Part shown: in pieces, positions 1,052 through 8,207 of the stretch
How the letters are laid out: each line of letters starts with the position of its first letter
Position numbering within the stretch: the stretch's first letter is position 1
Sequence record: MZ726791.1
From: Escherichia phage vB_EcoM_ASO1A
Length of the DNA: 64,000 nt
Direction: 5' to 3' (one strand)
The notes under the pieces: model-generated
The model's database searches: none
Told to the model about the DNA's origin: nothing
What the model saw: only the letters and a program-made list of their open reading frames with translations
Program-made: the position numbers and the translations under genes

Positions 1052-2467
1052 ATGAGCGAATTATTTAAACATGCGCACCTTCATGCAGGTCGAACTGAAA
1101 ATGGTGCTGTAAACCATACTTCATCAATGTCTGCTCTTGTAGACTTTTACAAAGCTGCTGGTTCAAGCCGTAGCAACGTAGAAATCTTACCAGACCTGTT
1201 CTACAAAGCTTTGCGTGAGGATGTTGATGTTGCAGTTCGTATTTTGCTTCATATGCGAGATGTACGAGAAGGTATGGGTGAGCGTAAAGCCTTCAGAACT
1301 GTTTTACTTCAAGCGATTGAAGACAAAGTTTTAGAGCCTACGCAGGTTCTTCGCATTATGGATAAGATTGCAGAACTTGGTCGTTTTGATGACTTCAAAA
1401 TCTTCGTAGGTACTCGTTTCGAGACAGATGCCTTCAAACATCTAGAAGCAGCATTACTAGACCCTGCAACAGCAGGTTTGGCGGCTAAGTGGTTACCACG
1501 AGTCAAACCACGTCATAAGCAGTTTGTAAAACGTTTCTGCAAGTTTGCCAACTTGAGTGAGAAAGAGTACCGCACACTGTTGTCTGCACTATCTGATACA
1601 GTTGAGCAAAAAATCTCTGCTAATGAGTTTGGTAAGATTGACTACAGTAAGATTCCTTCACTTGCTGCTGCACGTTACCAAAAACTGTTTAACCGCAAAG
1701 ATGGAGAACGCTACAAAGCTTACATCGAGTCCTTATCAAAGGGTGAGACTAAGATTAATGCTGGTGCTGTTTACCCATACGATGTAATTAAATCTGTTAA
1801 GCATGGTAATGCAGATGTTGCTAATGAGCAGTGGAAAGCACTACCAAACTGGGTGGCAGAGGGTGAAAACATCTTGTGTATGTCTGATGTTTCAAGCTCA
1901 ATGTCTTGGGTGAATTTTGGTTCAATTACTGCTCTTGATATTGGTGTTTCACTTGCATTGTATGTAGCAGAACGTAATACAGGTTGCTTTAAGAATGAGT
2001 TGATGGTTTATTCAACAAACCCTCACTTCATCGAACTGAGTGGTGATTTACGAAACCGTCATCGTCAGGTGATGCGACACGTTGAATATGGCTCAACTAA
2101 CTTACAAGCAGCTTTTGACCGTATTCTTGAAACAGGTAAAAGAAACAACTTGACTCAGAAAGATATGCCAAGTAAGCTTATCATCTTCTCCGATATGGAG
2201 TTCAATCAGGTTGATGGAGCTAACGGTCGTACAAACTTTGAAGCAATTCGTAGTAAGTACAAAAAAGCTGGATACGAAATGCCTCAACTGGTATTCTGGT
2301 ACTTAGCAAACCGTAATGGTACTTGCGAAGTGTCTGTTAAGGATAACGGTGTAGCAATGGTATCTGGTTTTTCTCCAGCTACTTTAAAAGCTCTGCTTGG
2401 TGGTGAGAAGTTTGACCCAATCAGCGTAATGCTCAAAGCAGTAATGATTGACCGTTATATCTGGTAA
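1052..2467 (+). CDS. von Willebrand factor A (vWA) domain protein with helical N-terminal region (Ro60/DUF2828-like architecture?)
   Basis: 471 aa; MIDAS-like DVSSSM (DxSxS) motif in C-terminal half; GAGAGAAGAGAG SD before ATG. Confidence 0.75.
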   Translation: MSELFKHAHLHAGRTENGAVNHTSSMSALVDFYKAAGSSRSNVEILPDLFYKALREDVDVAVRILLHMRDVREGMGERKAFRTVLLQAIEDKVLEPTQVLRIMDKIAELGRFDDFKIFVGTRFETDAFKHLEAALLDPATAGLAAKWLPRVKPRHKQFVKRFCKFANLSEKEYRTLLSALSDTVEQKISANEFGKIDYSKIPSLAAARYQKLFNRKDGERYKAYIESLSKGETKINAGAVYPYDVIKSVKHGNADVANEQWKALPNWVAEGENILCMSDVSSSMSWVNFGSITALDIGVSLALYVAERNTGCFKNELMVYSTNPHFIELSGDLRNRHRQVMRHVEYGSTNLQAAFDRILETGKRNNLTQKDMPSKLIIFSDMEFNQVDGANGRTNFEAIRSKYKKAGYEMPQLVFWYLANRNGTCEVSVKDNGVAMVSGFSPATLKALLGGEKFDPISVMLKAVMIDRYIW

Positions 2468-2485
2468 AAAGTTTTAAAAAGGGTA

Positions 2486-2520
2486 TTGACAATGTGTTTG
2501 ATACCCTTTAATATGTTCTA
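2486..2520 (+). promoter_or_regulatory. sigma70-like promoter (TTGACA - 17 nt - TAATAT) within inverted repeat GGGTAT...ATACCC
   Basis: Read directly; upstream of tRNA array. Confidence 0.55.
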
Positions 2521-2576
2521 CATAGAAACGAAACGAGAGCTTTTCTAAGATACTGAAAAATATTTTAAAAAAGTTC

Positions 2577-2612
2577 TTGACAATCACTAAAAAATAATGT
2601 TAAAGTGGTTAC
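2577..2612 (+). promoter_or_regulatory. sigma70-like promoter (TTGACA ... TAAAGT) preceding first tRNA
   Basis: Read directly. Confidence 0.45.
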
Positions 2613-2632
2613 ATAGAGTTTGAAAAGTTTAT

Positions 2633-2709
2633 CTCTGTTTAGCTCAGCTTGGTAGAGCGTTCCGTTTGGGGCGGTAAGGCCGGAGGTTCAAGTCCTCCAA
2701 CAGAGACCA
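2633..2709 (+). tRNA. tRNA-Pro (anticodon TGG)
   Basis: Acceptor CTCTGTT/AACAGAG, D-arm GCTCAGCTTGGTAGAGC, T-arm GGAGG-TTCAAGT-CCTCC, CCA encoded. Confidence 0.7.
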
Positions 2710-2716
2710 AATTAAT

Positions 2717-2794
2717 GTTCCAGTAGACAAAATGGTAAAGTCACCACTCTTTCAAAGTGGATATCTGAGGGTTCAAATCCCTTCTGGAACGCCA
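2717..2794 (+). tRNA. tRNA-Glu (anticodon TTC)
   Basis: Acceptor GTTCCAG/CTGGAAC, anticodon stem CCACT/AGTGG loop CTTTCAA, T-arm GAGGG-TTCAAAT-CCCTT, CCA. Confidence 0.7.
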
Positions 2795-2884
2795 GTTTTG
2801 ACAGAAGACCAATTACAGCAAACTTAATCTACTCATCTGACACGAAATCGGACAAAGAAGATATTTGGTCTGGTCATTGAGAAT

Positions 2885-2961
2885 TGCGGGTATAGAGAAA
2901 GGGCGTCTCACATGTCTCATTAGCATGGTATCGGCAGGTTCGACTCCTGCACCCGCCTCCA
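2885..2961 (+). tRNA. tRNA-Met/fMet/Ile2 (anticodon CAT)
   Basis: Anticodon arm CATGT-CTCATTA-GCATG, T-arm GCAGG-TTCGACT-CCTGC, CCA; 1:72 pair mismatched. Confidence 0.6.
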
Positions 2962-3038
2962 ATTTTGCAGAAGACCGTATTCAGCAACAAAATACTTTTT
3001 GCGGATAAAAGAAAAAACACGGTCTGGCAATGTATTAA

Positions 3039-3115
3039 GGTTAGGAAGCACATAAGGTATGTGCGGTCGCCTGTTAAGCGAATGGCACAGGGTTCGAATC
3101 CCTGACTAACCGCCA
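3039..3115 (+). tRNA. tRNA-Asn (anticodon GTT)
   Basis: Acceptor GGTTAGG/ACTAACC, D-stem GCAC/GTGC, anticodon loop CTGTTAA, T-arm CAGGG-TTCGAAT-CCCTG, CCA. Confidence 0.7.
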
Positions 3116-3124
3116 AATTTAAAT

Positions 3125-3212
3125 GTGTCGTTATCCCGTAGATGGTAGCGGTGGGGACTGTAAATCCCTTGTCATTGAGACTCGGTAGGTTCGACTCCTA
3201 CACGGCACACCA
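3125..3212 (+). tRNA. tRNA-Tyr (anticodon GTA), type II with long variable arm
   Basis: Acceptor GTGTCGT/ACGGCAC, anticodon arm GGGGA-CTGTAAA-TCCCT, long variable arm, T-arm GTAGG-TTCGACT-CCTAC, CCA. Confidence 0.65.
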
Positions 3213-3217
3213 ATAAA

Positions 3218-3295
3218 GGTTATGTAGTTTAATTTGGTTAAAATACTCCCCTGTCACGGGAGATGATGAGGGTTCAAATCCCTTCGTAACCGCCA
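3218..3295 (+). tRNA. tRNA-Asp (anticodon GTC)
   Basis: Acceptor GGTTATG/CGTAACC, anticodon arm CTCCC-CTGTCAC-GGGAG, T-arm GAGGG-TTCAAAT-CCCTT, CCA. Confidence 0.65.
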
Positions 3296-3321
3296 ATTTT
3301 GAGAGGGCTATTTAGCCCCTC

Positions 3322-3354
3322 CCTTAAAGGGTTCTTACGAGTATCCTTTAAAGG
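3322..3354 (+). repeat. conserved hairpin element copy A (TTAAAGGG-TTCTTACGAG-TATCCTTTAAAGG)
   Basis: Imperfect palindrome with conserved loop; related copies near 4169, 6671 and 35415. Confidence 0.5.
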
Positions 3355-3356
3355 AG

Positions 3357-3429
3357 CAGAAGACCAAATACAGCAAGAACGTATGAAATTTCAAGCCAAT
3401 TTAATTTTGAAAATTTAAACTTGGTCTGG
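3357..3429 (+). repeat. inter-tRNA spacer unit CAGAAGACC ... GGTCTGG (copy 3 of 4)
   Basis: Same terminal motifs as units at 2802-2873, 2968-3027 and 3443-3574; ends are complementary (AGACC/GGTCT). Confidence 0.45.
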
Positions 3430-3495
3430 CTCAACAAATTTACAGAAGACCGTTTACAGCAAAACTTAAACAATCTATTTCTCCGGTAAAGAAAA

Positions 3496-3560
3496 GGCGA
3501 AGGTTCGATTCCTTCACTCGGCAGATGTCGAGTTGGTGTAATGGTAGCACTTAAGATGAT
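3496..3560 (+). ncRNA. tRNA-like fragments: T-arm hairpin (GAAGG-TTCGATT-CCTTC) + 7-bp acceptor-like hairpin (ACTCGGC/GTCGAGT) + D-arm-like GTGTAATGGTAGCAC; pseudo-tRNA or structured RNA
   Basis: Read directly; elements are in non-canonical order (3' half before 5' half), so no canonical cloverleaf. Confidence 0.3.
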
Positions 3561-3723
3561 AAACAACGGTCTGGTAATTATCTTTGTAGATAAGTTATTA
3601 AGCTTACCTGTGAGTATGCGACCACAAAGGGTGAAAGGGTAAATTCTAGATTTAAACCCAAAAAGGCACATCGCTACAGACCTTAAGCAAGTCTGGGTAG
3701 CTTATCTACAAAGATAATTTAAT

Positions 3724-3798
3724 GGAAGTGTAGCAGAATGGTGATGCGGCAGACTTTTAATCTGACAGGCGATGGGTTCGAATCCCTCCACTTCTACC
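3724..3798 (+). tRNA. tRNA-Lys (anticodon TTT)
   Basis: Acceptor GGAAGTG/CACTTCT, anticodon stem CAGA/TCTG loop CTTTTAA, T-loop TTCGAAT, CCA; T-stem has two weak pairs. Confidence 0.55.
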
Positions 3799-3804
3799 AA
3801 AAAT

Positions 3805-3881
3805 GGTTCAGTCGCAGATAAGGTAATGCAAGGGTTTCATAAGCCCTATGAATGTGGGTTCGATTCCCACCTGAACCTCCA
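3805..3881 (+). tRNA. tRNA-Met/Ile2/fMet (anticodon CAT), second CAT tRNA
   Basis: Acceptor GGTTCAG/CTGAACC, anticodon arm AGGGT-TTCATAA-GCCCT, T-arm GTGGG-TTCGATT-CCCAC, CCA. Confidence 0.65.
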
Positions 3882-3882
3882 A

Positions 3883-3958
3883 GCTGGTATAGTTAAGAAG
3901 GTTATAACACTCCCCTGATAAGGGAACATCGGTGGTTCGATTCCACCTACCAGTACCA
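3883..3958 (+). tRNA. tRNA-Ile (anticodon GAT)
   Basis: Acceptor GCTGGTA/TACCAGT, D-stem GTTA/TAAC, anticodon loop CTGATAA, T-arm GGTGG-TTCGATT-CCACC, CCA. Confidence 0.7.
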
Positions 3959-3973
3959 ATTTCAATAAAGTTG

Positions 3974-4002
3974 TTGACATTGAGATGTGACTACTTTATA
4001 GT
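3974..4002 (+). promoter_or_regulatory. strong sigma70-like promoter (TTGACA - 17 nt - TATAGT) inside tRNA array
   Basis: Read directly; followed by ~200 nt without tRNA or ORF. Confidence 0.6.
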
Positions 4003-4168
4003 AACCTTAGTTTTCGTTGCGTAGCGTCTATTTTGCAAATTTAAAATAAATGCAAACGACAATGTTTTTCTGGCAGTAGCTTGATAGGCTAAACACCAGT
4101 GAGGTCTTCCAATCCCTCATCAAAGAATTTGGCGTACTCGCCCACGGTATGATTAATAAGGTGGGCAT

Positions 4169-4199
4169 CTTTAAGGGCTTTCTAAGAGAGTCTTTAAAG
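4169..4199 (+). repeat. conserved hairpin element copy B (CTTTAAGGGCTTTCTAAGAGAGTCTTTAAAG)
   Basis: Shares AGGG-YTTTCTAAGAGAGTC core and palindromic TTAAAG flanks with copies A and C. Confidence 0.5.
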
Positions 4200-4206
4200 A
4201 TAATTA

Positions 4207-4288
4207 CGGGGCGTATCTCAGCGGTCTTCTAAACCGCCGTTAACCGAGTAAGTGGAGTATGCGGGTTCGAGTCCTGCCGCCTCGACCA
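4207..4288 (+). tRNA. atypical tRNA-like gene, anticodon TCT (Arg) with no canonical D-arm and an extended variable region
   Basis: Acceptor CGGGGCG/CGCCTCG, anticodon arm GCGGT-CTTCTAA-ACCGC, T-arm GCGGG-TTCGAGT-CCTGC, CCA; only 7 nt between acceptor and anticodon stem. Confidence 0.4.
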
Positions 4289-4431
4289 ATTTAGTTAGCA
4301 GATTACTTAGACGACCTAAGCGGGTCTTCCTGTAAGGAGGTGGTCTGTATCTCATGTTTTCCAGAACATGTAAATAATCTGAGAAGGGGCTTTACAGTGT
4401 TGCGAAAATACGGTAAGCTTCGAATTACAGT

Positions 4432-4514
4432 ATGGGACGATGTTAAGACTCTAAGGCATGAGCAACGGCCTCCAAAACCGTTTCAAAGGGGTTCAACTCC
4501 TCCGTCCCATGCCA
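4432..4514 (+). tRNA. tRNA-Trp (anticodon CCA), enlarged D region
   Basis: Acceptor ATGGGAC/GTCCCAT, anticodon stem ACGG/CCGT loop CTCCAAA, T-loop TTCAACT, CCA. Confidence 0.5.
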
Positions 4515-4527
4515 AAGTCTTATTAGG

Positions 4528-4615
4528 GGTAGGTAGCGGCTAATGGTAGCCAAACTGTATTGAAAACAGTTGCCACTGTAGAGATACGGTGAGGGTTCGA
4601 CTCCTTTACTTACCG
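4528..4615 (+). tRNA. tRNA-Ser (anticodon TGA), type II, 3' CCA not encoded
   Basis: Acceptor GGTAGGT/ACTTACC, 3-bp D-stem, anticodon arm ACTGT-ATTGAAA-ACAGT, long variable arm, T-loop TTCGACT. Confidence 0.55.
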
Positions 4616-4769
4616 CCTAATAAGATTTACACCGTCCATGCTTGCTCGCATTTTCGGTTTATCCCTCGTGTATTGTCGTACACTGATAAAGCACCTAGTA
4701 GGTGTCACGGAGAAGAGATAATATCAAGCTCTCCAAAGGTTCTAGTCACCGGATTAAACAAGACTATGC

Positions 4770-4795
4770 AAAGACCTATTTAGGTCTTTTTAGAG
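4770..4795 (+). terminator. rho-independent terminator-like hairpin (AGACCTA/TAGGTCT + T-run)
   Basis: Perfect 7-bp stem followed by TTTTT; ends a ~150 nt non-coding stretch after tRNA-Ser. Confidence 0.5.
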
Positions 4796-4871
4796 GGCTT
4801 CTAAGGTTATTAGTCGCTTGTTGTGGAACCTTGTTGCTCAGGTTCTTAGAAGTTCTCTAAAAAGATTTAAT

Positions 4872-4950
4872 GGGAGATTGACGGCAACTTGGTAGACCTA
4901 TCTCGCTTAGAACGAGATGCTTGAGGGTTCGAATCCCTTGTCTCCTACCA
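4872..4950 (+). tRNA. tRNA with Leu anticodon TAG, Leu-like D-arm but short variable arm
   Basis: Acceptor GGGAGAT/GTCTCCT, anticodon arm TCTCG-CTTAGAA-CGAGA, T-arm GAGGG-TTCGAAT-CCCTT, CCA; D-loop CAACTTGGTAGA. Confidence 0.5.
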
Positions 4951-4957
4951 AATTAAT

Positions 4958-5033
4958 GCAGGTGTAGCAAAATGGTTATGCGGCTGACTCTTAATCAGTA
5001 AGACGATGGGTTCAATTCCCTCCACCTGTACCA
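4958..5033 (+). tRNA. tRNA-Lys (anticodon CTT)
   Basis: Acceptor GCAGGTG/CACCTGT, anticodon stem GCTGA/TCAGT loop CTCTTAA, T-loop TTCAATT, CCA; paralogous to Lys(TTT). Confidence 0.6.
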
Positions 5034-5039
5034 GACATT

Positions 5040-5115
5040 GGGGATGTAGTTTACATGGTTAAAACATAAGTTTTGCAAACTTAAGTACAGGGTTCAATTC
5101 CATGCTTCTCCACCA
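5040..5115 (+). tRNA. tRNA-Ala (anticodon TGC)
   Basis: D-stem GTTT/AAAC, anticodon arm TAAGT-TTTGCAA-ACTTA, T-loop TTCAATT, CCA. Confidence 0.6.
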
Positions 5116-5121
5116 ATTAGT

Positions 5122-5196
5122 GCATCCATAGTTTAAACGGGAAAATTACAGTCTTCCAAACTGAGGTTGAGGGTTCGATTCCCTCTGGATGCTCCA
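5122..5196 (+). tRNA. tRNA-Gly (anticodon TCC)
   Basis: Acceptor GCATCCA/TGGATGC, anticodon stem CAGT/ACTG loop CTTCCAA, T-arm GAGGG-TTCGATT-CCCTC, CCA. Confidence 0.65.
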
Positions 5197-5203
5197 AATT
5201 AAT

Positions 5204-5279
5204 GCTCCTATCGTATAATTGGCTATTACGGTTGCCTTGTAAGCAACTTATCAGGGTTCGAATCCTTGTGGGAGCACCA
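5204..5279 (+). tRNA. tRNA-Thr (anticodon TGT)
   Basis: Acceptor GCTCCTA/TGGGAGC, anticodon arm GTTGC-CTTGTAA-GCAAC, T-arm CAGGG-TTCGAAT-CCTTG, CCA. Confidence 0.7.
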
Positions 5280-5282
5280 ATT

Positions 5283-5372
5283 CAGAGGTCAAGTGAAAGA
5301 CCGCTGGTGTCAACTGAAGACCGTAACAAATTCCACGGAGTTGAGTTAGCGGCACAACTTCAGACCTCTTTC
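5283..5372 (+). ncRNA. candidate structured spacer RNA (long-range stem CAGAGGTC ... GACCTCTG enclosing internal hairpins)
   Basis: Complementary 8-mers ~80 nt apart between tRNA-Thr and tRNA-Val; no ORF, no tRNA fold. Confidence 0.25.
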
Positions 5373-5374
5373 AT

Positions 5375-5449
5375 GCTCGCTTAGTTTATATGGTAAAACA
5401 TCACCCTTACAAGATGAAGAAAAAGGTTCAAGTCCTTTAGTGAGTACCA
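5375..5449 (+). tRNA. tRNA-Val (anticodon TAC)
   Basis: Acceptor GCTCGCT/AGTGAGT, D-stem GTTT/AAAC, anticodon loop CTTACAA, T-arm AAAGG-TTCAAGT-CCTTT, CCA. Confidence 0.65.
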
Positions 5450-5450
5450 T

Positions 5451-5528
5451 GTTCCAGTATCCCAATTGGCAGAGGATGCAAGCTCAAACCTTGTATTAGT
5501 GACGGTTCGAATCCGTCTTGGAACACCA
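5451..5528 (+). tRNA. tRNA with Leu anticodon CAA, short variable arm
   Basis: Acceptor GTTCCAG/TTGGAAC, D-loop CAATTGGCAGA, anticodon stem GCAAG/CTTGT loop CTCAAAC, T-arm GACGG-TTCGAAT-CCGTC, CCA. Confidence 0.5.
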
Positions 5529-5533
5529 ATTTT

Positions 5534-5609
5534 GCAGGATTAGTTCAAATGGATAGAGCAACAGTCTACGAAGCTGTTAATAGGGGTTCGAATCCCTTAT
5601 CCTGCGCCA
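5534..5609 (+). tRNA. tRNA-Arg (anticodon ACG)
   Basis: Acceptor GCAGGAT/ATCCTGC, D-arm GTTC-AAATGGATA-GAGC, anticodon arm ACAGT-CTACGAA-GCTGT, T-arm AGGGG-TTCGAAT-CCCTT, CCA. Confidence 0.7.
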
Positions 5610-5626
5610 GATAAAAAGGTGATACT

Positions 5627-5869
5627 ATGCAAACATTAACAGTAGTTGAACATGAAAACTGTGAGAATATTGAGTTTGTCAGGGTCATTGGTGTTGAACA
5701 CCACATTTTCTTAAAAGTAGGGTACTTATGTGACCCCGCTAGAGTAGAAAGATTTATACGTGATTGTTTTGGTGGTAGACAGCTAAAGAGTGTTATTTTT
5801 GAGACAGTTTTACCAGAAGGTTTAGAAACGAATAATAACATTTATCTCCTTACAAGGATTAGACGATGA
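5627..5869 (+). CDS. hypothetical small protein embedded in tRNA array
   Basis: 80 aa ORF; AAGGTGA SD 7 nt upstream of ATG; directly follows tRNA-Arg. Confidence 0.4.
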   Translation: MQTLTVVEHENCENIEFVRVIGVEHHIFLKVGYLCDPARVERFIRDCFGGRQLKSVIFETVLPEGLETNNNIYLLTRIRR

Positions 5870-6423
5870 GATATTTAAAATATGCTTCATGGATTTTCCT
5901 AGCTTTGCTAGAACCATTAGCAGCAACCTTAGCAGTTATCTTAGCACCTTTCGTAGTTCCATTTTACAGTGAGAAGAAAGGCCACTTACCTTTCGGATTT
6001 AGATGGATGGAGACATATGACAACCCAATTGATGGTGACGAAGGTCATATCGAACGATGGGCTAAGATTAGAAAGATTGGTAAGCTGGGTGTCTACATGC
6101 AGAGAGTCGGATGGCTCTGGAGAAACAAAGCTTATAACTTCTCTTACCATGTATTAGGAAGAGATGTAAAAGATGTTACTAAGTGGAAAGGTAATATCAA
6201 CGTAAGTTCTGACCCTGAAGATAATCAGACAGGTTATCTCCTAATGTGGAACAGTAATGCTTGGGGATTATTCGCTTTTATCCCATCAATTAAAGTCTTT
6301 GGTAAACAATTTTACTGGAGAATTTATATTGGGTGGAAGCTAAAAAGTGTTGTCCCAGAAGAAAGAGCATTCTCAAGGGAAAGAGTTATGTTGGCATTCT
6401 TTATTCATCCACTAAGAAAGTAA
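5866..6423 (+). CDS. hypothetical membrane protein (N-terminal hydrophobic segment, Trp-rich)
   Basis: 185 aa; ATG with AAGGA SD; start overlaps upstream ORF stop (ATGA). Confidence 0.55.
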   Translation: MRYLKYASWIFLALLEPLAATLAVILAPFVVPFYSEKKGHLPFGFRWMETYDNPIDGDEGHIERWAKIRKIGKLGVYMQRVGWLWRNKAYNFSYHVLGRDVKDVTKWKGNINVSSDPEDNQTGYLLMWNSNAWGLFAFIPSIKVFGKQFYWRIYIGWKLKSVVPEERAFSRERVMLAFFIHPLRK

Positions 6424-6431
6424 AGATTTAA

Positions 6432-6507
6432 AGGGGATTAGTTTACAAGGTTAAAACCTCGGTCTTTGAAATCGAAGAAGTTGGTTCAATTCCAACATCC
6501 CCCGCCA
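6432..6507 (+). tRNA. tRNA-Gln (anticodon TTG)
   Basis: D-stem GTTT/AAAC, anticodon arm TCGGT-CTTTGAA-ATCGA, T-arm GTTGG-TTCAATT-CCAAC, CCA; 1:72 mismatch. Confidence 0.6.
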
Positions 6508-6509
6508 AT

Positions 6510-6588
6510 GCTCCATTACTCCAATTGGCAGAGAGGCCAGACTTAAAATCTGTGTTATGTATCGGTTCGAATCCGATATGGAGTACCA
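6510..6588 (+). tRNA. tRNA with Leu anticodon TAA, short variable arm
   Basis: Acceptor GCTCCAT/ATGGAGT, D-loop AATTGGCAGA, anticodon stem CAGA/TCTG loop CTTAAAA, T-arm ATCGG-TTCGAAT-CCGAT, CCA. Confidence 0.5.
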
Positions 6589-6593
6589 AATTT

Positions 6594-6669
6594 AGCGGTA
6601 TAGCATAACTGGCAATGCAACAGTCTCTGAAGCTGTCCTATTAAGGTTCAAATCCTTATGCCGCTGCCA
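6594..6669 (+). tRNA. tRNA-Gln (anticodon CTG)
   Basis: Acceptor AGCGGTA/TGCCGCT, anticodon arm ACAGT-CTCTGAA-GCTGT, T-arm TAAGG-TTCAAAT-CCTTA, CCA. Confidence 0.65.
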
Positions 6670-6670
6670 C

Positions 6671-6701
6671 TTCTAAGGGTTCTTACGAGAGTCCTTAAAT
6701 G
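6671..6701 (+). repeat. conserved hairpin element copy C (TTCTAAGGGTTCTTACGAGAGTCCTTAAATG)
   Basis: Near-identical loop (GGGTTCTTACGAG) to copy A. Confidence 0.5.
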
Positions 6702-6776
6702 TGGCCTTATCATAAATGGTAATGACCCATGCTGTGAACATGGTCTATACGGGTTCAAATCCCGTAGGTCACCCCA
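6701..6776 (+). tRNA. tRNA-His (anticodon GTG)
   Basis: Acceptor GTGGCCT/AGGTCAC, D-stem TCAT/ATGA, anticodon arm CCATG-CTGTGAA-CATGG, T-arm ACGGG-TTCAAAT-CCCGT, CCA; no encoded G-1. Confidence 0.7.
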
Positions 6777-6781
6777 ATTTA

Positions 6782-6858
6782 TAGTCCAAGTAGCTTATAT
6801 GGTTAAAGCGCGTGTCTGAAAAACATGAGAAGAGGGTTCAAATCCCACTGGACTACCA
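6782..6858 (+). tRNA. tRNA-Phe (anticodon GAA), 3' CCA not fully encoded
   Basis: Acceptor TAGTCCA/TGGACTA, D-stem GCTT/AAGC, anticodon arm CGTGT-CTGAAAA-ACATG, T-loop TTCAAAT; odd 8-9 spacing. Confidence 0.55.
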
Positions 6859-6874
6859 ATTTCAAAGGTGCTTA

Positions 6875-7609
6875 ATGAAAGAGATGACAGAACAAGGTAA
6901 GGAGATTTTTAATCTCTTAAAAACCGGTAAAGGGTTTTCTAACCCACTTATTACTGGTGCAGCAGTTCTCGGTGGAACCGTAGCTGCCTCTACATCACTT
7001 GTAAGCTCTATTAGTTCTGTAACAGACCCTACAATGCAGGAGAAACTTGTTGCTGCTGGACTTACAACAGTCCTTCTAAACAGCTTTACAACAAGCCTTA
7101 CAAGCACTACAGCAACTACTAAGACCCTGACAGACTACGGTCAAAAGTCTATTGATGAGTTTTCATCACGTATGCAGGTAGCAAAGGGATATTCCAATGT
7201 TATGAGTGCAGCAGGAGAACAAGTTGGTTGTACACCGTTCAGTGGTATTATGGGTGTTGCTACAGAATATGGTCAAAAAGCTATTGATACAATTAACAGT
7301 ACACTAGAGAGTGTTAACGATGTATTAAGTGACTTACAAGACGCTATTGATGAGGGTCTTGATACTATTTCTGATTTAGCTAATCAGGCTGTTAGTAAGA
7401 TTAATGAAGGTATTTCAAAGATTACAGCTTATGCAGATGAAGTTGTGCAGATGATTGAAGAAGAAGCTGCCCTTATTGCAGAGTACCTTAAAACGAATAT
7501 CAATGGGTTCTTAGCAGGTATCTTACCAGACTGGTTTGACGATGCCTGTAAAACTGGTGTAATTGACACTATTGCAACACCAGAAATGAAGAACGCATTA
7601 CAGAAATAA
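6875..7609 (+). CDS. hypothetical protein (Ala/Ser/Thr-rich N-terminal half, acidic helical C-terminal half)
   Basis: Track ORF 6812-7609 trimmed to in-frame ATG (Met22) with AAAGGTG SD, because the first 45 nt overlap tRNA-Phe. Confidence 0.55.
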   Translation: MKEMTEQGKEIFNLLKTGKGFSNPLITGAAVLGGTVAASTSLVSSISSVTDPTMQEKLVAAGLTTVLLNSFTTSLTSTTATTKTLTDYGQKSIDEFSSRMQVAKGYSNVMSAAGEQVGCTPFSGIMGVATEYGQKAIDTINSTLESVNDVLSDLQDAIDEGLDTISDLANQAVSKINEGISKITAYADEVVQMIEEEAALIAEYLKTNINGFLAGILPDWFDDACKTGVIDTIATPEMKNALQK

Positions 7610-7611
7610 AT

Positions 7612-7704
7612 GGAAGATTAACCCTAAAAGGTAAGGGAGCAGTTTGCTAAACTGCCAGTAGCTGAGAAATCGGTGTACCAGTTCAAGTCTGGTATCTTCC
7701 TCCA
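7612..7704 (+). tRNA. tRNA-Ser (anticodon GCT), type II
   Basis: Acceptor GGAAGAT/ATCTTCC, anticodon arm GCAGT-TTGCTAA-ACTGC, long variable arm, T-arm ACCAG-TTCAAGT-CTGGT, CCA. Confidence 0.7.
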
Positions 7705-7708
7705 ATTT

Positions 7709-7784
7709 GAATCCGTGACAGAAATGGCTATGTGCCTGTCTGCAAAACAGGTTTATAAGGGTTCGAGTCCCTTCGGATTCTCCA
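7709..7784 (+). tRNA. tRNA-Cys (anticodon GCA)
   Basis: Acceptor GAATCCG/CGGATTC, anticodon arm CCTGT-CTGCAAA-ACAGG, T-arm AAGGG-TTCGAGT-CCCTT, CCA. Confidence 0.7.
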
Positions 7785-7821
7785 AGTTATTTTACTCTCT
7801 CTCAATTAAAATAATAATAAT

Positions 7822-7881
7822 GCCCTGCTATAAGTATTCTTCCTTTCGCTACCGAAGAGTATTTTTAGACAGGGCTTTTTT
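7822..7881 (+). terminator. rho-independent terminator ending the tRNA array (GCCCTG ... CAGGGC + T6)
   Basis: Long hairpin followed by TTTTTT immediately after last tRNA. Confidence 0.6.
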
Positions 7882-7946
7882 ACAGAGTTATACTTTATAA
7901 GAAGGCTTATACAGTATGTCTCTGACGTACATTGTGGTTTCTCCTT

Positions 7947-7970
7947 GACGGTCTCTGTGCCGTCTTTTTT
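7947..7970 (+). terminator. second terminator hairpin (GACGG ... CCGTC + T6)
   Basis: Read directly. Confidence 0.5.
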
Positions 7971-8006
7971 AAGGAGAAACATGGTTAATTATTTGGAGAA
8001 AACATA

Positions 8007-8207
8007 ATGAGTGAGACCGTTTATAAAGAACTTTATGAAGCTAACAAAAAGCTAGAATTTATGCAGAATACTATCATGGCAATTGCAGACAGATTGTCTG
8101 TAGCAACAGGTATTGATATTAAAGAAGCATCTATGGATGCACTTCTTGATGCTGTTGATGCAAAGTTCGAAGTTAAGAAAGAAGAGACTGCTACAGACTC
8201 TGAATAA
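8007..8207 (+). CDS. hypothetical small acidic protein (terminase small subunit not excluded)
   Basis: 66 aa, GGAGAAAAC SD; first gene of morphogenesis operon, just upstream of terminase large subunit. Confidence 0.5.
   Translation: MSETVYKELYEANKKLEFMQNTIMAIADRLSVATGIDIKEASMDALLDAVDAKFEVKKEETATDSE

Follow-up and report, generated by a model that had tools for sequence, protein, structure and literature searches.

A 2019 study of Streptomyces tRNAs states that almost all bacterial tRNA-Leu are of type II, and does not mention viruses (Fan et al. 2019, PMC6614811). The tRNA-Leu(CAA) of Streptomyces coelicolor reported there is of type I, as is the tRNA-Leu(UUR) of animal mitochondria, with the identity elements A73 and A14 (Giege and Eriani, PMC9976931). 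Engineered E. coli tRNA-Leu variants without the variable and/or the anticodon arm (Larkin et al. 2002, as outlined in PMC9976931) established that leucyl-tRNA synthetase (LeuRS) needs A73 and the tertiary core formed by the D and T loops, and not the arm. Among phages, the T5-like OSYSP (MF402939.1) has only two tRNA-Leu genes, and both are 77-nt type I genes. Here we analyze a 64,000-nt stretch of DNA from Escherichia phage vB_EcoM_ASO1A (MZ726791.1), hereafter the window, in which a large tRNA array includes three tRNA-Leu genes, with the anticodons UAG, CAA and UAA, that have short variable regions. These genes join the known type I kind of tRNA-Leu found in mitochondria and Streptomyces, and we consider it highly probable that they are genuine, working leucine tRNAs with a short arm and not tRNA mimics.

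A first-pass annotation, made by folding the sequence by hand, had assigned the Leu anticodons TAG, CAA and TAA to these genes and described them as having Leu-like D-loops with only 4–7 nt between the anticodon and T stems. ARAGORN placed all three genes at exactly the same coordinates, and the Rfam tRNA model and the tRNAscan-SE annotation in GenBank were concordant with it on the anticodons (Table 1). The lengths of the variable regions were obtained from the ARAGORN drawings and from a separate segmentation of the genes, which agreed in giving 5, 6 and 7 nt, and in none of the three can this region form a stem. A variable arm of more than 10 nt folded as a stem-loop, the mark of class II, is thus absent from the three Leu genes and present in the Tyr and Ser genes of the same array. 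No automated folding (ARAGORN, Rfam or the tRNAscan-SE annotation) gave another anticodon or a long arm for them, and the structural part of the earlier proposal stands. Its premise that bacterial tRNA-Leu is normally class II likewise holds for E. coli K-12 (NC_000913.3), where the variable region measures 13–15 nt in all five tRNA-Leu isoacceptor types (leuZ, leuX, leuV, leuW and leuU). The window tRNA-Leu are class I-like, whereas every tRNA-Leu of the phage's host is class II.

The D arm of all three genes is of the Leu type, with a 3-bp stem and an 11–12-nt loop. In Leu(CAA) and Leu(UAA) the D region spans 20 nt and its layout is exactly that of E. coli tRNA-Leu, namely T8, N9, a 3-bp stem, the loop N-A14-A15-T-Y-G18-G19-Y-A20a-R-A, a 3-bp stem and N26. 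Leu(UAG) has the same identity bases, but its D region is 2 nt longer and its D stem reads A-T/CxC/G-C. In sister phages the D region of Leu(UAG) is 21 nt long with an equally weak D stem. The anticodon stems of these sister genes show compensatory changes (TCTCG/CGAGA, CCTCG/CGAGG and CCATC/GTTGG), which argues that the Leu(UAG) gene is being maintained. Leu(CAA) is near-invariant, with 96–100% identity across 254 phage records.

Leucine identity in E. coli depends on A73, the A15:U48 Levitt pair, G18G19, A20a, U8:A14 and contacts of the D loop with the T loop; the anticodon and the long arm are dispensable for the E. coli LeuRS, and variants lacking both arms are still substrates (Giege and Eriani, PMC9976931). 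All three window genes have A73 followed by CCA, T8, A14, A15 and a T as the last base of the variable region, these being observations on the bases, with their three-dimensional pairing a prediction. G18G19 and A20a lie in the Leu-type D loop in the exact E. coli layout in Leu(CAA) and Leu(UAA), and are present in Leu(UAG) within a 22-nt D region with a mismatched stem. Comparison with the five E. coli isoacceptor types showed that the window and OSYSP Leu genes share with them T8, A14, A15, G18G19, A20a, T48, A73 and CCA, and that the D region is 20 nt long in all of these genes except Leu(UAG). One of the OSYSP genes is also nearly identical to the window Leu(UAG) in its T arm and 3' acceptor end. 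Thus, the comparison of identity elements with host tRNA-Leu, which the first-pass annotation had proposed, finds the full E. coli LeuRS set in all three genes. Its suggestion that the short arm could alter their charging identity is not supported, as all the LeuRS identity elements are present and neither the long arm nor the anticodon belongs to that set (PMC9976931). The related idea that they are modified or mimic tRNAs fares no better, as this architecture is found widely among phages, with strong covariation (see below), and a type I tRNA-Leu of a T5-like phage is reported to insert leucine in E. coli (PMC13596443).

The described type I tRNA-Leu differ from the window genes in several respects. 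The S. coelicolor tRNA-Leu(CAA) is cellular and has C48 in place of the U48 of the phage genes; it is not charged by the E. coli LeuRS, and the S. coelicolor LeuRS ignores A73, whereas the phage tRNAs hold the full E. coli-type set (PMC6614811). The mitochondrial tRNA-Leu(UUR) is floppy and structurally degenerate, in contrast to the phage tRNAs with their canonical D- and T-loop elements, and has a dedicated LeuRS that acts within the mitochondrion, a compartment of its own. The OSYSP tRNA-Leu have the type I architecture and the identity elements in common with the window genes, but belong to a phage of another family (Demerecviridae), have a regular 3-bp D stem and a 5-nt variable region in both genes and, unlike the window genes, have been tried experimentally. 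The phage Leu genes are the natural counterpart of the Larkin constructs, which are laboratory-made and unselected for decoding.

To place these genes in context, viral contigs were scanned with a motif combining the D loop and T loop of the window CAA and UAA genes, separated by a gap that fits either class. At the 120 loci selected by this motif, the length of 139 of the 157 tRNA-Leu did not exceed 79 nt; of the tRNA-Ser 75 of 78 were long, and of the tRNA-Tyr 34 of 36. As a motif scan is biased towards its own motif, a second viral sample was drawn with a generic T-loop-plus-CCA pattern, which does not select for Leu and is roughly unbiased, taking genes of up to 80 nt as short. This sample contained 77 Leu genes, 29 of them short (17 loci) and 48 long (31 loci), whereas all 47 Ser and all 17 Tyr genes were long. 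Distinct Leu genes of the second sample with a variable region of at most 8 nt had A73 and U8 in every case (28/28) and U48 in all but one (27/28), and in short viral Leu genes with a 20-nt D region A14, A15, G18G19 and A20a were almost always present. tRNA-Leu of type I and of type II occurred together in 10 viral arrays, and arrays of at least 8 tRNAs contained 22 short and 32 long Leu genes.

Covariation was then assessed on 56 distinct type I tRNA-Leu of viruses, aligned by structure and free of gaps; the segmentation of this alignment is based on ARAGORN, and it hence leans towards the cloverleaf. In this alignment 98.4% of the cells at cloverleaf pairs were paired, against 58.7% after shuffling, and changes on both sides were observed at 19 of the 20 pairs. 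The covariation score was 1.04, compared with 0.23 for shuffled sequences and at most 0.17 when the partner strand was slid, a signal far beyond the controls despite the structure-leaning alignment. The window genes accordingly combine a Leu anticodon and a variable loop that is short, and covariation supports their cloverleaf, as expected of type I. We also noted that an unusually large share of this lineage, 25 of the 56 sequences, has a G1.U72 wobble, two of the three window Leu genes among them.

The same motif was used to scan 185,579 species genomes of cellular organisms. Among the 120 matches listed, type I tRNA-Leu with the same CCCAATTGGCAGAGG D arm were found in Actinomycetota (Mycolicibacterium, Corynebacterium, Pseudonocardia, Streptomyces and Frankia), Planctomycetota, Acidobacteriota, Chloroflexota and others; some were lone chromosomal genes and some lay within tRNA arrays of 14–33 genes, and none came from Enterobacterales. 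Judged by these predicted genes, cellular type I tRNA-Leu is broader than the single Streptomyces case of the literature. Our literature searches on phage type I tRNA-Leu returned nothing specific, and the phage-wide occurrence of type I tRNA-Leu, with the Ser and Tyr arms always kept, seems to be undescribed in the searchable literature.

The codon usage of the phage would fit a role of the three genes in codon supply. In the 43 window open reading frames (ORFs) of at least 150 codons, the Leu codons are TTA 25%, TTG 14%, CTT 29%, CTC 5%, CTA 11% and CTG 15%. E. coli strongly prefers CTG among the Leu codons, and relative to this host-preferred codon the phage favors UUA, UUG, CUU and CUA. 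As the anticodons UAA and CAA serve UUR and the anticodon UAG serves CUN, the set can cover all six Leu codons. We propose that the Leu genes would be transcribed with the rest of the array from sigma-70-type promoters, that their transcripts would be processed by host enzymes, and that the products would be charged by the host LeuRS, which would read A73, U8:A14, A15:U48 and the position of G18G19/A20a in the Leu-type D loop while ignoring the anticodon and the long arm. Because the identity set of LeuRS excludes the arm, a tRNA that keeps this set can do without the arm and remain a substrate for leucylation. The long variable arm is, however, used by SerRS and bacterial TyrRS, for which reason Ser and Tyr tRNAs would keep theirs and only Leu would become armless in phages. 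The simplest account of the arm loss would be a relaxed constraint peculiar to Leu.

The structure of the genes, their identity elements, their conservation and covariation and their distribution are observations of the present analysis. The proposal draws on the literature for the recognition rules of LeuRS and for the insertion of leucine by an OSYSP tRNA, and by analogy with these the three window tRNAs would themselves be charged with leucine. An OSYSP tRNA-Leu given the anticodon CGA is reported to read TCG as leucine in a recoded E. coli and to support a strain made dependent on this altered code (PMC13596443). On this evidence, the E. coli LeuRS charges a type I phage tRNA-Leu whatever its anticodon. 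Several points weigh on the other side. The S. coelicolor type I tRNA-Leu(CAA), which has C48 instead of U48 and is the only bacterial one assayed, could not be charged by the E. coli LeuRS (PMC6614811), and it is not stated in PMC13596443 which of the two OSYSP Leu genes served in the experiment cited there (Nyerges 2023). Leu(UAG) is irregular, with its 22-nt D region, the CxC in its D stem and an Rfam score just above the threshold, and Leu(UAA) has a C27.U43 mismatch. The explanation of Ser and Tyr arm retention by the needs of their synthetases, too, is one that we infer from established knowledge of these enzymes.

Some of the same observations could be taken to mean that the genes are mimics, decoys or decaying copies, which would stand outside decoding or, following an anticodon shift from another class I tRNA, carry a different amino acid. 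The failure of the E. coli LeuRS on the Streptomyces tRNA, the weak D stem and low Rfam score of Leu(UAG) and the aberrant structure of other genes in the array are all compatible with such a fate. However, these genes share with the host tRNA-Leu genes both the full Leu identity set and a D loop built in the way specific to Leu, the anticodon loops are invariant while the stems covary, conservation of the genes extends over Ounavirinae and well outside it, and leucine insertion in E. coli is reported for a type I phage tRNA-Leu (PMC13596443). We accordingly regard mimicry or decay as very improbable, and favor genuine leucine tRNAs.

The distribution also raises the question of whether the arm loss protects against host factors. 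Leucine tRNAs might in this way escape a factor that reads the class II arm, either a defence tRNase or a SerRS that would mis-serylate them, the selected function then being immunity evasion and not codon supply. Evasion of host tRNases by phage tRNAs is an established phenomenon (PMC10264068, PMC13596443), human SLFN11 prefers type II tRNAs, Schlafen-type tRNases act in phage defence, and Leu, the sole class II family with an arm-independent synthetase, is the only one that is armless in phages. Against this, no bacterial nuclease is known to prefer class II tRNAs, the 10 viral arrays mentioned above contain Leu genes of both types side by side, and the lone chromosomal type I genes of Actinomycetota and other phyla fit a relaxed constraint equally well. 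Class-II-specific bacterial Schlafens were considered as the cause and set aside, as the two characterized ones show no such preference, their targets being Lys, Met, Ala, Val and Phe tRNAs in one case or the T loop of tRNAs in general. We view evasion as an unlikely driver of the arm loss, and its broader form, in which short-armed tRNA-Leu would be a phage-wide adaptation, invisible to an undescribed class-II-directed defence tRNase or to SerRS mischarging, and not a product of drift, is in our estimate similarly doubtful. Were it true, the array would amount to a toolbox of re-engineered translation RNAs, including the rewired Arg(UCU), the insertion-bearing Trp and the tmRNA relative described below.

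By the textbook rule, repeated in the 2019 Streptomyces study, tRNA-Leu of the bacterial kind belongs to class II, and type I is restricted to mitochondria and one actinomycete. In the viral sample, about 4 in 10 tRNA-Leu are type I, and none of the Ser and Tyr tRNAs is. The viral pattern would be a natural, large-scale confirmation that the arm of Leu is dispensable for LeuRS and that the arms of Ser and Tyr are not, and it makes hundreds of natural variants available for studies of LeuRS recognition and editing. It would also explain why, in recoded E. coli, phage tRNA-Leu scaffolds deliver leucine independently of their anticodon.

The tRNA clusters of large virulent coliphages are thought to match phage codon usage, to replace degraded host tRNAs or to evade tRNA-targeting defences. 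Those of T4, T5 and Felix O1 are likewise promoter-driven arrays of about 8–25 tRNAs with encoded CCA, and the window array shows no difference of kind from them, being a typical Felixounavirus array. Over positions 2400–8100 the window shows 100% identity with Escherichia phage vB_EcoM_ASO1B (MZ726792.1; Ounavirinae, Felixounavirus), whose GenBank record already annotates the tRNA cluster with tRNAscan-SE. Its identity with the Felix-O1-like phages of Escherichia, Salmonella, Shigella and Citrobacter, of which more than 200 were matched, is 94–98%. Between the tRNAs there are three small blocks of ORFs as well as several non-coding elements that are structured.

Table 1. Features of the tRNA array and its surroundings in the window
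Feature	Position	Strand	Characteristics	Detection or score
tRNA-Leu(UAG), type I	4872..4950	+	variable region 5 nt (TGCTT); A73, CCA; G1.U72; D region 22 nt, weak D stem	Rfam 30.5 bits
tRNA-Leu(CAA), type I	5451..5528	+	variable region 6 nt (ATTAGT); T8, A14, A15, G18G19, A20a, T48, A73, CCA	Rfam 44.0 bits
tRNA-Leu(UAA), type I	6510..6588	+	variable region 7 nt (GTTATGT); G1.U72; 27-43 is a C.T mismatch	Rfam 47.5 bits
tRNA array	2633..7784	+	25 canonical and 2 non-canonical tRNA genes (27 in total)	ARAGORN, Rfam, GenBank MZ726792.1
tRNA-Tyr(GUA)	3125..3212	+	88 nt, long variable arm kept	ARAGORN
tRNA-Ser(UGA)	4528..4617	+	90 nt, long variable arm kept	ARAGORN
tRNA-Ser(GCU)	7612..7704	+	93 nt, long variable arm kept	ARAGORN
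Non-canonical tRNA-Arg(UCU)	4207..4288	+	normal acceptor, anticodon and T arms; TATCTCA in place of the D arm	Rfam 31.7 bits
Non-canonical tRNA-Trp(CCA)	4432..4514	+	about 8 extra nt between acceptor and D stems; G73, CCA	ARAGORN mitochondrial mode only
Two sigma-70-like promoters	2486..2606	+	upstream of the first tRNA	10/12 matches each
Internal sigma-70-like promoter	3974..4002	+	precedes the tmRNA-like element	11/12 matches; also annotated in GenBank
tmRNA-like RNA	4008..4200		unannotated, about 190 nt, just downstream of the 3974-4002 promoter; tag frame 4052-4084, stops 4082, 4085	
Intrinsic-terminator-like hairpin and T run	7947..7964	+	downstream of the last tRNA	

ARAGORN detected 25 tRNA genes in the array, all on the + strand, and the Rfam tRNA model gave 23 matches above its gathering score, 22 of which fall among these 25. 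Together these standard genes serve 19 amino acids; Trp is missing, and ACG is the only Arg anticodon. The initial count of about 26 tRNAs for all 20 amino acids was therefore right as to the array and its extent, and 20 is reached through the non-canonical Arg(UCU) and Trp(CCA) genes, but standard detection supports 25 genes and 19 amino acids. The same annotation was mistaken in holding that several tRNAs lack an encoded CCA, as 24 of the 25 have one and only Ser-UGA, which reads GCCT, does not. Its remark on mismatched first acceptor pairs applies to two tRNAs, the Met gene at 2885–2961 (UxC) and Gln-UUG (AxC), while six others have a G1.U72 wobble. The tRNA(CAU) at 2885–2961 further has a pyrimidine (T) at position 37 and scores below the Rfam tRNA threshold; its candidate identities are Met, Ile2 via lysidine, or an initiator-like tRNA.

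Annotation pipelines call the Leu genes of the array correctly and miss its rewired Arg and Trp tRNAs and its tmRNA-like RNA, and these three further RNAs escape standard annotation. The Arg(UCU) gene was found by neither tRNAscan-SE nor default ARAGORN. Its anticodon arm is that of phage tRNA-Arg(UCU), and it is followed on the 3' side by a 23-nt stretch, CGTTAACCGAGTAAGTGGAGTAT, which contains a D-loop-like TGGA. Copies with 83–90% identity occur in jumbo phages, Mydovirus, Justusliebigvirus and others, and in the sister phages C600M2 and Sf14 the locus is occupied by a canonical tRNA-Arg(UCU) of 77 nt. Across 12 variants from widely different phages the acceptor, anticodon and T stems are fully paired and covarying, and the core is invariant. 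A CTC/GAG helix may enclose the anticodon arm, with the TGGA, reminiscent of G18G19A20, lying 3' of it, though this helix is not proven because both of its strands are invariant. An alanine identity, prompted by a G3.U70 pair in ASO1B, BIS47 and WPEC5, was rejected, as only 4 of the 12 variants have G.U at 3:70; it is also countered by the use of AGA for 40% of the phage Arg codons and by the canonical tRNA-Arg(UCU) at the sister locus. Hence, this RNA is a rewired tRNA-Arg in preference to an alanine acceptor. In the Trp(CCA) gene compensatory changes were observed in the D, anticodon and T stems among 8 variants.

The third of these RNAs resembles a transfer-messenger RNA (tmRNA). In an exhaustive survey of ssrA from 2014, the only phages listed with a tmRNA are mycobacteriophages, Bacillus phage G and DS6A (PMC4131195), and our literature searches on tmRNA-like elements of enterobacterial phages returned nothing specific. 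On the window element Rfam gives 29.2 bits for tmRNA_permuted, against a gathering score of 47, and 16 bits for tmRNA; over this element type the Rfam tmRNA families score 13–29 bits, below their gathering scores. The element reads AAUAAAU GCA AAC GAC AAU GUU UUU CUG GCA GUA GCU UGA UAG, which from a GCA resume codon yields the tag ANDNVFLAVA, compared with ANDENYALAA in the E. coli tmRNA. Elements with 72–83% identity are present in phages unrelated to this one, namely Kuttervirus, Swiduovirus, Schitoviridae, Kolesnikvirus and lambdoid phages, in the last of which they lie downstream of Q. At least 120 viral contigs contain the element with the 10-codon frame kept, and it was found in 336 of 5,426 complete E. 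coli genomes, in prophages and plasmids of about 110 kb, where it is never annotated. The frame and its stop are retained while codons 3–6 vary, giving other tags such as ANDDVVLMAA, ANEEMYLAVA and ANDEQFLAVA, and helix 5, which closes the tag end, covaries together with the two pseudoknots that follow.

A tRNA-like domain (G3.U70 acceptor stem, T arm and CCA) was sought with ARAGORN, which made no tmRNA call on the window or on the regions from -80 to +400 nt around 106 distinct elements; over whole loci its sole call on the 10-codon element type was a 749-nt permuted one in a Felix-like locus (L559). A search of the window for a separate acceptor piece, comprising a T loop, a strand complementary to the element's 5' end and NCCA, recovered only tRNA-Thr, by chance. 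A bona fide permuted tmRNA, in which G3.U70 and CCA are present and the tag reads ANDSIFAVAA, was found in one viral contig (L428), and its 5' motif and the layout of its post-tag pseudoknots are common to the elements of enterobacterial phages. Given this shared motif and layout, the latter look like descendants of a two-piece phage tmRNA, whose tRNA-like domain would have been lost. We also observed many permuted two-piece tmRNA genes in marine viral contigs (L379–L466), with tags of 13–14 and in some cases about 24 residues that are of alphaproteobacterial type (ANDNFASEELRLAA, ANDNFASEDYALAA and others).

Several other structured elements lie between the tRNAs. Four of them (2801–2878, 2966–3033, 3355–3433 and 3441–3570) share the termini CAGAAGACC..WCAGCAA and GGTCTGG, which form a closing helix, and this family has so far been seen in Felix-like loci only. 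The element at 3441–3570 is predicted to fold as a tRNA-like four-way junction with a T arm, a D arm and a loop-capped acceptor stem, that is, with a permuted-tRNA topology. It is overlapped by a 129-nt intron-bearing "tRNA-Thr-GGT" in GenBank (window 3395–3523), which looks spurious. A Y-RNA/YrlA identity for this element was discarded, there being no Rfam match at E<=5. A further RNA-like element of about 147 nt (3575–3721) has an inverted repeat of about 18 bp (ATTATCTTTGTAGATAAG / CTTATCTACAAAGATAAT) as its closing helix, and differs little among the 10 Felix-like loci in which it is conserved. Finally, a recurrent hairpin type, AAGGGTTCTTACGAGAGTCCTT, is found at the borders of tRNA sub-clusters (at about 3322–3357, 4170–4199, 4786–4865 and 6672–6700) as well as in Erwinia phage Hena2, and may be a processing or termination signal.

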